A DNA stretch of 64,000 nucleotides from Alphaproteobacteria bacterium (GTDB lineage Bacteria; Pseudomonadota; Alphaproteobacteria; Paracaedibacterales; CAIOTO01): positions 337-64,336 of the forward strand of contig CANKZX010000002.1 in assembly GCA_947488275.1 (NCBI GenBank). Direction: 5' to 3'. Below the pieces are notes generated by a model. That model saw only the letters and a program-made list of their open reading frames with translations, did not search any database and was not told the DNA's origin. Below are positions 36,841-39,021 of this stretch, in pieces. Numbering within the stretch: position 1 is the first letter of the stretch; the number at the start of each line of letters is the position of its first letter. Position numbers and translations under genes: made by a program.

Positions 36841-37365
36841 TTATTTTTTACGAAAAGCATCAAGCGTCACAACATTTGACTCACCTTCTGCAAGAGGTTT
36901 TATCTCTTTTTTTGGCAAATCATCCATACCATCAAAAATAGGTTCTAAATCCAAGTCTGTGTAATCATTTAAGTCTGGCGTAAAATCAAAACCAAAATTA
37001 ACCGATGGATCACCAAATTTAGTAATGGCCTCAAATGGGATTGTCAATCGTTCTTCTGCATTATCAAATGTCAATGTAATGGAAAATTTTCTATCATCAA
37101 CCACGAGATCCCAATACTCATACTGCAAAACGATTGTCATATCATCAGGATAATCTTCACGCAAATAGGCAGGCATTTCAACACCTGGATAATGTGTGAT
37201 AAAATCAATGTAAAAGTGATGTTCACCAGGCAAACCATTTTTAGCAATATCACGCAACACGTCACGCATTACCTTACGAAGAGCGGATTGCACGAGACCT
37301 TCATAGTCAATGGTATCTTTATGCTTCACGGAAAAACTCCCTTTTATAGTAAATAGTGGGGACAT
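36841..37365 (-). CDS. sspB: ClpXP adaptor SspB (alpha-type)
   Basis: GLPGEHHFYIDF...YPDDMTIVLQYEYWDL...IPFEAITKFGDPSVNFGFDF matches Caulobacter-type SspB as I recall it. C-terminal tail VVTLDAFRKK. ATG 37365 preferred, because the TTG at 37386 would overlap the tmRNA gene. Confidence 0.85.
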   Translation of the reverse strand: MSPLFTIKGSFSVKHKDTIDYEGLVQSALRKVMRDVLRDIAKNGLPGEHHFYIDFITHYPGVEMPAYLREDYPDDMTIVLQYEYWDLVVDDRKFSITLTFDNAEERLTIPFEAITKFGDPSVNFGFDFTPDLNDYTDLDLEPIFDGMDDLPKKEIKPLAEGESNVVTLDAFRKK

Positions 37366-37387
37366 TCTGTTGCCCGGCGCCCCCAAA

Positions 37388-37690
37388 CCGCTATTGGAAA
37401 ACTACTGTATTATTCGTAAAACGAATTTTTAAGCAGCTTTACGAACGTCGCTACGACGACGGTTGCCATTGGCAGCGCGACGACGGTTGCGGTTCGCGGA
37501 TACAAGTGATCCACCAATTAAAAGAGAACTTACGTTGCCTTTTATAATGTTTAGTCCAATAACGGTGGTACCATACCGAGCAAAACGAATATCTTTATTG
37601 TGCACGTCGATCCTATTTCGTCCCCATAAAATGGTGGAGACGCCGGGTACCGCCCCCGGGTCCGCAACATCTATTCCATAGACGGTTTAT
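37388..37690 (-). ncRNA. ssrA: tmRNA (ssrA), circularly permuted two-piece form
   Basis: On the minus strand: acceptor piece ...CCGGG-GGCGGTA-CCCGG-CGTCTCC-A-CCA (CCA at 37634-37632); 6-nt linker TTTTAT; coding piece GGGGACGAAATAGGATCGACG... (starts at 37625). Acceptor stem GGGGACG/CGTCTCC includes G3-U70. Tag ORF GCG AAC ... GCT GCT TAA (37497-37429). Outer boundaries approximate. Confidence 0.85.
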
Positions 37691-37845
37691 TGCCATAGAT
37701 AGTCACCTATCATTATACAAAATAGTCTTTTTTCAAAAAAATTCAAGGGGCAATATACAACTATTATTTAATTTTTATGGACATATAGATACGATTGCGT
37801 TATAAAATTGTGAAATCGTATAATTTGAAATTTAGAGACCAAAAA

Positions 37846-39021
37846 ATGAATAAAATTATTATTTTCATAACACCTCTAATGATAAATCTATCAGTTCTAT
37901 TTTCCATGGAAACAGAATGTAATGAAGAAAATAGTCAAAAGAAACATCTAGTCACAAAAAAACCTATGGTTGCAGGGGCAAGTAACTTCATCCTTGATCA
38001 GATTCACCTAGCAACATCTAGCTTTGTTCGCGAACATGGACTGACTGAAGGAGACACCATTCTTATTGATACAGCGCAAAAGGAAGCATTACTTCGCGCG
38101 GCAACAGATAGCGCGCTTCCTCTATTAATGCAAAGTTCAGGCGGCGCCGTGTCAAACACACTTAGCTGTTTAGCGCGCCTAGGGATTCATGCCCGTGCAA
38201 TGGGTTCAGCCGTTGCTGGTGATGTTTTTGGCGGCGCTTATCTTGCTGATTTAACCCGAAAGGGAGTTGAATATCGCTTAACAGAAACGATTGATCCATC
38301 ACAAGGGTCTGGCGCTTGTTACATATTTATAACGGAGGCAGAATATGTTAATACTGACGGCTCCATTTCTAAAAAAATTGAACGCACCATGGGAACTCAT
38401 ATTGGTGATGCAGGCAGTATTCGCGTATATCAAGATGATATTGACTGGATGAGCGAGGCAGATATGTTTATCGCCGAAGGTTATCTTTTTTGTGAAACAG
38501 CACGGGATGCGATGTTTGAATTGGCGGCAGGGGTAAAGGCAAAAGGCAAACTCGTTACACTGAGTATTGCTGCTGGATTTTGTGCAACAACGTACAAGGA
38601 ATCATTAAATCAATTTATTGATGAACAAGTTGACATTGTGATTGGTGATAAATCTGAGGCATTAACGTTAACAAATAGAACAGATGTACGTGATGCCATT
38701 GCTGCATGGCAAGCCATGGGGAAAAAGGGAGCGATTACATGTGGTATAGAAGGCGCTTATGTTTTTGACGATGCAAAGATTTATCATATAGAACCTCCAT
38801 CTATTGGAACAGTAATTGATGCAACAGGGGCTGGTGATGGATTTGCGGCTGGTTTTGTAGCAGAAATTCTTAAAACAGGTGATATCGTAAATGCTGGAAA
38901 ATTAGGCGCATACTGTGCGGGTAGTGTATTACAAGTAGCAGGTGGATATCCGCCAGAATCATTAGCAAAAGATATCGCTTTGGGATTGCCATGGTTTATT
39001 TTACATAACGAAATTAACTAG
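37846..39021 (+). CDS. PfkB-family carbohydrate/nucleoside kinase with a hydrophobic N-terminal extension
   Basis: Ribokinase-family motif DATGAGDGFAAGFV near the C-terminus. N-terminal MNKIIIFITPLMINLSVLFS is signal/anchor-like. Alternative start at M58 (37966). Confidence 0.8.
   Translation: MNKIIIFITPLMINLSVLFSMETECNEENSQKKHLVTKKPMVAGASNFILDQIHLATSSFVREHGLTEGDTILIDTAQKEALLRAATDSALPLLMQSSGGAVSNTLSCLARLGIHARAMGSAVAGDVFGGAYLADLTRKGVEYRLTETIDPSQGSGACYIFITEAEYVNTDGSISKKIERTMGTHIGDAGSIRVYQDDIDWMSEADMFIAEGYLFCETARDAMFELAAGVKAKGKLVTLSIAAGFCATTYKESLNQFIDEQVDIVIGDKSEALTLTNRTDVRDAIAAWQAMGKKGAITCGIEGAYVFDDAKIYHIEPPSIGTVIDATGAGDGFAAGFVAEILKTGDIVNAGKLGAYCAGSVLQVAGGYPPESLAKDIALGLPWFILHNEIN

Follow-up and report, generated by a model that had tools for sequence, protein, structure and literature searches.

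Which peptide does the transfer-messenger RNA (tmRNA) of this bacterium encode, and at which codon does its reading frame begin? The question is raised by a locus on the minus strand of a 64,000-nt stretch of DNA (the window; positions 337 to 64,336 of contig CANKZX010000002.1, assembly GCA_947488275.1) from an alphaproteobacterium of the order Paracaedibacterales, for which a preliminary description had proposed a circularly permuted, two-piece tmRNA with three oddities: an unusually short linker between its pieces, a non-canonical T-loop and a long, arginine-rich tag. With a probability that we put at about 80%, the locus encodes the only tmRNA of the cell, a functional one of the circularly permuted, two-piece kind, with its tag read from the codon GGC at position 37539. 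Two of the three oddities are norms of the family, and the third is real but was mis-delimited and belongs to a variant of the tag that is found throughout the order. The identity of the gene, its structural elements, its reading frame, its partner genes and the pattern across the clade were established by sequence analysis; the remaining steps described below follow known tmRNA biology or analogy.

The gene (ssrA) runs from about 37711 to 37355, so that the limits first assigned to it (37388–37690) were too narrow. The Rfam covariance model alpha_tmRNA (RF01849) is covered end to end (model positions 1–355) with a score of 214.6 bits against a gathering threshold of 50, the model tmRNA_permuted (RF04321) is matched with 130.8 bits against a threshold of 47, and ARAGORN calls a permuted tmRNA at 37338–37724; both detectors that the preliminary description had named, ARAGORN and RF01849, score the region, and its assignment of the locus to the permuted alphaproteobacterial ssrA is borne out. 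The T-arm, the 3′ acceptor strand and the CCA are placed 5′ of the 5′ acceptor strand and the tag frame, and the alanine identity set is present as a 7-bp acceptor stem GGGGACG/CGUCUCC with the G3:U70 pair noted before, a discriminator A and then CCA, with the U that faces acceptor G3 being kept in all relatives read. Single-copy in this 1.47-Mb, 89%-complete assembly and matched by a tmRNA gene in 41/41 related genomes, ssrA is here an ordinary, essential housekeeping RNA. It shares with the two-piece tmRNA of Caulobacter crescentus, whose permuted ssrA was reportedly described by Keiler, Shapiro and Williams in 2000 (cited in PMC3985003), the permuted order, the G3:U acceptor stem, the encoded CCA, a T-loop of GGCRGUR type, helix P2, the pseudoknots PK1 and PK2, the distance from the resume context to PK1, a tag ending in AA and an adjacent sspB.

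The tag frame is open and ends at its stop (GCT GCT TAA, stop at 37431–37429) as had been stated; its start, previously placed at GCG 37497 or GCC 37473, moves upstream to GGC 37539–37537, where both the conserved resume context and the conservation of the frame put it. The resume codon is set through SmpB by positions −6 to +1 (PMC3985003). In the Rfam alignment, UUAUAAAA followed by GGC AAC is matched to uuAuAAuU followed by GCa AAC, the consensus resume site of the model, and the extra ~70 nt fall within the reading frame instead of separating PK1 from the resume codon. The context UAUAAAA followed by GGC lies 16 nt past CCACCGUUAUUGG; the frame is open through the 14 codons that separate it from GCG, and translation from GGC 37539 remains open for 36 codons into the TAA, merging with the frame read earlier to give GNVSSLLIGGSLVSANRNRRRAANGNRRRSDVRKAA.

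The same site can be read throughout the order. A rule that combines a context A-U/C-A-R-N-W, located 13–16 nt after PK1, with a following codon that starts with G yields an open frame to a stop in 38/38 tmRNAs readable by pattern and in 4 others read by hand (42/42), and these frames end in AA before the stop except for two tags, which end in KRA or RIA; among the 38 pattern-readable relatives, context and PK1 distance are the same in all. All ten tmRNAs of the family to which this genome belongs have GGC at the resume site and tags of 32–41 codons. From that site to the first conserved motif of AN.N type (ASRS in G007) the family shows 39, 42, 48, 51 or 54 nt, a segment that is always a multiple of three and has no stops, and all indels in the family are multiples of three; an untranslated linker would not behave so, changing its length by threes without gaining stops. 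One relative (G009) even starts its tag with GNNNVSS, in which what is left of the usual ANNN/ANDN can still be recognized. Further downstream, mean pairwise differences at codon positions 1/2/3 in the family alignment are 0.258/0.286/0.435 for the part from the first AN.N to AA, and 206 synonymous stand against 334 non-synonymous codon pairs from the first AN.N to the C-terminus; the nearest genome (G005, with an SspB that is 88% identical) has the same tag, with a single synonymous change from CGC to CGT. Because a conserved context is found 14 codons upstream of GCG and the frame is open in 42/42 cases, the tag is most likely GNVSSLLIGGSLVSANRNRRRAANGNRRRSDVRKAA, read from GGC 37539.

Several points weigh against this reading of the tag and of what becomes of it. 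In the family alignment the N-terminal 14–18 codons vary equally at the three codon positions (0.336/0.336/0.347), and this N-terminal spacer is therefore not under amino-acid selection; that it is translated is suggested by its position and by the conservation of frame and of stop codons, rather than by conservation of amino acids. The codon GCG, too, is preceded by U at −5 and A at −4 (as part of GUAUCC), so that context alone is not decisive in a single genome. The role of AN.N as the motif that SspB binds is transferred from studies in Caulobacter, reportedly those of Lessner and of Chien, both in 2007. At the C-terminus, finally, Ala-Ala is kept and position −3 is Lys in place of a hydrophobic residue, which departs from the LAA or VAA ends preferred by ClpX and makes direct recognition by ClpX uncertain.

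Both the unconstrained stretch upstream of GCG and the U and A that precede this codon would suit a ribosome that resumes further downstream, either at GCG 37497, adding the 22-residue ANRNRRRAANGNRRRSDVRKAA, or at GCC 37473, adding 14 residues, with the preceding 42–66 nt left untranslated; the resulting tags would open with the familiar A-N-x-N, and the one from GCC would be of ordinary length. We nevertheless consider such a start unlikely, in that it would lie 58 or 82 nt past PK1, compared with 13–16 nt across the order and the class, and would leave the conserved UAUAA context without a role at its canonical distance. Moreover, the context ahead of the internal AN.N varies among relatives, and there is no reason why an untranslated segment should keep the multiple-of-three lengths given above, or its freedom from stops, in 10 family members and several other families.

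A third candidate for the first codon, GGU 37515, is ARAGORN's own call both here and in G005 and would give the 28-residue tag GGSLVSANRNRRRAANGNRRRSDVRKAA; it is a heuristic choice of codon within the same frame, however, made by a program that missed 16/42 tmRNAs of the order and whose starts are inconsistent among relatives (14, 22 and 32 residues in one family), and the context UUAAUU before GGU is off the conserved PK1 distance, all of which makes this start very improbable. Barely credible, finally, is a shift to the +1 frame, where resumption at GCA 37538 would read GCA ACG UAA as a two-codon tag, Ala-Thr, and reduce the long frame to a relic. GCA is the commonest resume codon, the +1 frame stops after two codons in G000, G002, G003, G005 and G006, and two-residue tags are known in other phyla (PMC11915505); yet that frame stays open for 31–32 codons in G001 and G004, so that the short frame is not conserved, the 3-nt gap from the conserved AUA to the codon suits GGC and not GCA, and the long frame shows variation of coding type together with a conserved KAA before the stop. 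The loci of the order at which ARAGORN reported no tmRNA (16/42, L001–L042) are scored by Rfam at ~194–267 bits, and elsewhere the program set the start inside the frame; automatic annotation of tmRNA tags is thus unreliable in this clade, and tags are better read from the conserved resume context.

Read from GGC 37539, the tag consists of a spacer (codons 1–14), an extra module ANRNRRRA (codons 15–22) and a module of canonical length, ANGNRRRSDVRKAA (codons 23–36). The spacer, rich in Ser, Gly and Leu, drifts freely in sequence while its reading frame is kept: SSLLIGGSLVS is found in this genome and in G005, and SSSSTGGRGQTR in sister species. The last 14 residues are as long as an ordinary alphaproteobacterial tag and laid out like one, having an AN.N motif of adaptor type and a C-terminal AA. 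That the tag is basic, internally duplicated and ends in KAA had been recognized correctly, the duplication being visible in the DNA as a repeat with a 24-nt period (20 nt, 85% identical). Compared with the tag of C. crescentus, it has 36 codons instead of about 12–14 and begins with Gly (GGC) instead of Ala; with 9 K+R to 1 D+E it is strongly basic, and it lacks the Asp of ANDN, contains two AN.N motifs and ends in KAA.

These properties recur in the order. When tags anchored at the aligned resume column were compared between 42 tmRNAs of the order and 82 from other alphaproteobacterial families, the median length was 33 codons (range 18–59) in the former and 12 codons (10–40) in the latter, 9/82 of which reach at least 18; 15 of the 38 machine-read tags of the order exceed 35 codons. 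The median net charge is +6 in the order and −1 in the other families, ANDN occurs in 1/42 tags as against 72/82, and the KAA ending in 10/42 as against 0/82, LAA or VAA closing 59 of the latter. The first residue is Ala in 26 tags of the order, Gly in 11 and Val in 5, compared with Ala in 81/82 elsewhere. Among 41 distinct tags of the order, 63 AN.N motifs were counted where shuffling gives an expectation of 7.5, and 26 tags carry two or more where 0.5 would be expected; successive motifs are mostly 7–11 residues apart, and the last one usually begins 12–15 residues from the C-terminus, which corresponds to the length of a normal tag. By this sequence comparison, the length, the basic charge and the repeated motifs of the tag characterize the whole order and not a single gene. 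The tmRNA described here resembles the others of the order in its T-arm, in the mostly short segment between its pieces, in a tag length that falls within the range of 18–59 codons and in the usual presence of two AN.N motifs and positive charge; it differs in that, in its family, the first residue of the tag is Gly and the last three are usually KAA. According to a 2025 tmRNA database paper, the commonest tag length is 10 aa and the shortest is 2 aa (PMC11915505); a search of the literature for tmRNA tags of great length brought up no relevant work.

Such tags are enriched in the order without being unique to it, since a few other lineages with small genomes also have long or arginine-rich tags. 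Long tags were seen in four unrelated small-genome Alphaproteobacteria (0.5–1.5 Mb; loci L144 of G137, L148 of G057, L139 of G118 and L124 of G044), with the longest, that of G044, reaching 40 codons; those of G137 and G057 are arginine-rich, e.g. ANNRSQRRRTTRTPANYSRSRRQRVAAHAA and ANNAKQARPQQTVRRPSQTRRSSNRVERA. Judging from these sequences, tags of this long, basic kind may have evolved more than once in reduced genomes. Within the order, one family (L042, at C60 of G032; L029 of G020; L036 of G026) has tag frames of 50–59 codons from the canonical site, e.g. ATEMYVREEEVATVGAKAKAGVTTLVGSMKMVSKSTVINFVMPQACAQQDLFTASAVAA, which are without clear AN.N motifs and not basic. The G032 assembly (70% complete, 230 contigs) contains two full-scoring tmRNA genes, L023 and L042, with tags of 34 and 59 codons, and could be either a mixed bin or a case of a true second copy.

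The other two features flagged in the preliminary description are those of the family. GGCGGTA is not a non-canonical T-loop, for GGCGGUA is the RF01849 consensus and is the same in all T-arms recovered from the order; across the class the loop follows GGC(A/G)GU(A/G), being seen as GGCGGUA, GGCAGUA and GGCAGUG. The segment between CCA and GGGG does measure 6 nt, as reported, but this length is not exceptional, with 5–12 nt being usual in the order and segments of 2–3 nt occurring elsewhere. In 38 tmRNAs of the order the segment ranges from 5 to 57 nt and is mostly 5–12 nt (about three quarters), several having 5 or 6 nt, and in 4 more that were read by hand it measures about 9, 9, 10 and 28 nt; for 70 tmRNAs from other families of the class it has a median of 32 nt, with five at 6 nt or less and the shortest at 2–3 nt. 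Six nucleotides are therefore short for the class and normal for the order. Nearly all segments of the order have U as their last nucleotide before G1, and a U-ending segment before G1 fits cleavage by RNase P.

A helix proposed to close the two pieces, formed by CTATGGAA (37681–37674) and TTCCAATAG (37399–37391), was rejected. Its strands are indeed present and able to pair in the genus; comparative support is lacking, as in an alignment of 33 relatives only 49.8% of the cells are paired against 51.0% after shuffling, covariation is lower than the mean of the shuffles and slid controls perform equally well. The 5′ strand lies within the nearly invariant AUGGAAUAG loop and the P2 strand of the Rfam structure, and the region of the 3′ strand is variable. 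In the same test, the PK2 stem CGGU/(A/G)CCG, used as a positive control, has 89% of its cells paired, with compensatory changes and a level that 0/500 shuffles reached. Owing to the uncertain alignment of the variable 3′ region, the negative result weighs heavily against a helix conserved throughout the order and less so against one specific to the genus.

The partners of the tmRNA are encoded in the same genome. As had been noted, sspB starts next to the tmRNA, its GTG at 37329 following the tmRNA 3′ end at 37355 by 25 nt. The closest relatives of known structure are the alphaproteobacterial SspB entries 2NYS, 2QAS and 2QAZ (E 1e-32 to 5.5e-29); with the Caulobacter (2QAS/2QAZ) and Agrobacterium (2NYS) proteins the product shares the Pfam SspB domain, and its C-terminal tail is close to the VVSLDAFRKK of 2NYS. 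sspB lies directly downstream of ssrA in 42/42 loci of the order and next to it in 24/30 loci of other families, an adjacency that, on these gene orders, is the usual alphaproteobacterial layout. The gap between the two genes is similar across the order (20–40 nt), no terminator-like site was found between the tmRNA 3′ end and sspB (37330–37354, minus strand), and sspB may be part of the same transcript as the tmRNA precursor.

Within the tag-binding domain of SspB, residue 71 is the only position that cleanly separates the order from the other families (42 versus 26 sequences): it is Glu in 40/42 members of the order and Gln in 19/26 sequences from elsewhere (VLQYEYW versus VIQHQFW). A Glu that arises at this position as the tag loses Asp and gains Arg would plausibly fit a charge-matched co-evolution of adaptor and tag. 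The genome further encodes SmpB (PF01668, 157.8 bits, in an open frame of 168 aa), ClpX (674 bits) and ClpP (283 bits), the latter two from adjacent genes. The zinc-binding domain (CSFCGK...CDEC) and the RKH loop (GGRKHPQQ) of ClpX are intact and canonical, and ClpX accordingly gives no sign of adaptation to the tag in these two elements.

By comparison with Caulobacter-type tmRNA, a single precursor would be transcribed from about 37711 to 37355 and probably cut by RNase P before G37625, leaving the 6-nt UUUUAU on the acceptor piece, from which an exonuclease would probably remove it as far as the encoded CCA at 37632; the two pieces would be held together by the acceptor stem and helix P2. 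As in established tmRNA biology, the molecule would be charged with alanine through G3:U and A73 and enter stalled ribosomes together with SmpB, after which translation would resume at GGC 37539, the codon located at the conserved PK1 distance behind UAUAAAA, and the peptide (A)GNVSSLLIGGSLVSANRNRRRAANGNRRRSDVRKAA would be added. On the analogy of Caulobacter and Escherichia coli, AN.N would be the site for SspB and the C-terminal AA that for ClpX, and tagged proteins would most likely be passed by SspB to ClpXP; because of the Lys at −3, they may, speculatively, depend more on SspB than usual.

One could go further and suppose that the order uses natural multivalent, adaptor-dependent tags, an idea that we regard as doubtful. 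In such a system, two or three AN.N motifs would fill both grooves of the SspB dimer or recruit two adaptors, a weak, basic KAA end facing the positive RKH loop would make ClpXP depend on SspB, and the loss of Asp from the tag would be matched by the change from Gln to Glu at SspB residue 71. If this were true, multivalent tags would be the natural counterpart of the engineered DAS+4 tags, E. coli ssrA tags in which a weakened C-terminal ClpX signal and extra spacing result in SspB-dependent degradation (McGinness 2006, as reviewed in PMC8138137). Comparison of the sequences suggests a likeness of layout alone, in that KAA and the added modules could act likewise; the DAS+4 tags are man-made, belong to E. 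coli and have a single SspB site.

Whatever the mode of delivery, this small-genome order has replaced the short acidic ANDN...LAA tag with tags that are 2–5 times longer, positively charged and equipped with motif repeats, with SmpB, SspB and ClpXP remaining canonical. Its tags form a natural series in which to follow the effect of tag length, charge and number of adaptor sites on delivery to ClpXP, a possible co-evolution of SspB and tag, and the length that a tmRNA reading frame can reach.

The structural elements of the RNA and the flanking features are collected in Table 1. Beyond what is listed there, the AUGGAAUA segment of the acceptor piece is nearly invariant across the order.

Table 1. 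Coordinates of the tmRNA gene elements and adjoining features in the window, in order of transcription
Feature	Position	Strand	Basis or remark
Promoter-like stretch, TTGAAA 37736–37731 and TATAAT 37717–37712 (uncertain)	37712..37736	-	Aligns to the conserved RF01849 5′ leader
5′ hairpin of the acceptor piece, GAUAG-GUGA-CUAUC	37698..37711	-	Aligns to the first RF01849 hairpin; stem letters vary among relatives, pairing kept (by eye)
Helix P2, strands contributed by the acceptor piece, with the conserved internal loop AUGGAAUAG	37661..37697	-	Rfam structure line
T-arm CCCGGGGGCGGUACCCGG, 7-nt T-loop GGCGGUA at 37654–37648	37643..37660	-	Exact RF01849 consensus
3′ acceptor strand CGUCUCC 37642–37636, then ACCA 37635–37632 (discriminator A and encoded CCA)	37632..37642	-	Sequence and Rfam; the mature acceptor piece is predicted to end here
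UUUUAU, 6-nt segment between the two pieces, predicted to be lost on processing	37626..37631	-	Sequence
5′ acceptor strand GGGGACG, predicted mature 5′ end of the coding piece, expected RNase P site	37619..37625	-	Sequence and Rfam; processing site inferred
D-loop analogue AAAUAGGAUCGAC, coding-piece P2 strands, pseudoknot PK1 (CGGUAUGG...CCACCG)	37556..37618	-	Rfam alignment, high posterior probabilities; PK1 pairing read from sequence and Rfam alignment
Resume-codon context UAUAAAA, U at −5, A at −4	37540..37546	-	Aligns to model uAuAAuU just before the consensus resume codon
Tag frame, 36 codons, GNVSSLLIGGSLVSANRNRRRAANGNRRRSDVRKAA	37432..37539	-	Open frame from the conserved resume position
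Tag stop UAA	37429..37431	-	Sequence
Hairpin 3′ of the tag frame, UUCGU-UUU-ACGAA	37413..37425	-	Sequence; genus-conserved
3′ pseudoknot PK2 (GCGGUU / GGGGGC / GCCGG / GUCCCC) and 3′ end of the coding piece	37355..37391	-	Rfam alignment
sspB: ribosome-binding site AAGGGAG 37343–37337, GTG start 37329, 162 codons, C-terminal tail VVTLDAFRKK of ClpX-docking type	36841..37343	-	Pfam SspB, E 9.5e-39

The two hexamers of the promoter-like stretch upstream of the tmRNA have just 13 nt between them, and a scan for promoter consensus gave one weak match, TTGAAA-16-AATGAT, that does not rise above the shuffled expectation. Downstream of sspB, rimP, nusA and infB follow on the same strand. On the other side of the tmRNA, a divergent gene for a PfkB-family kinase (37846–39021, plus strand; Pfam E 3e-34) encodes a protein with an N-terminal hydrophobic extension.

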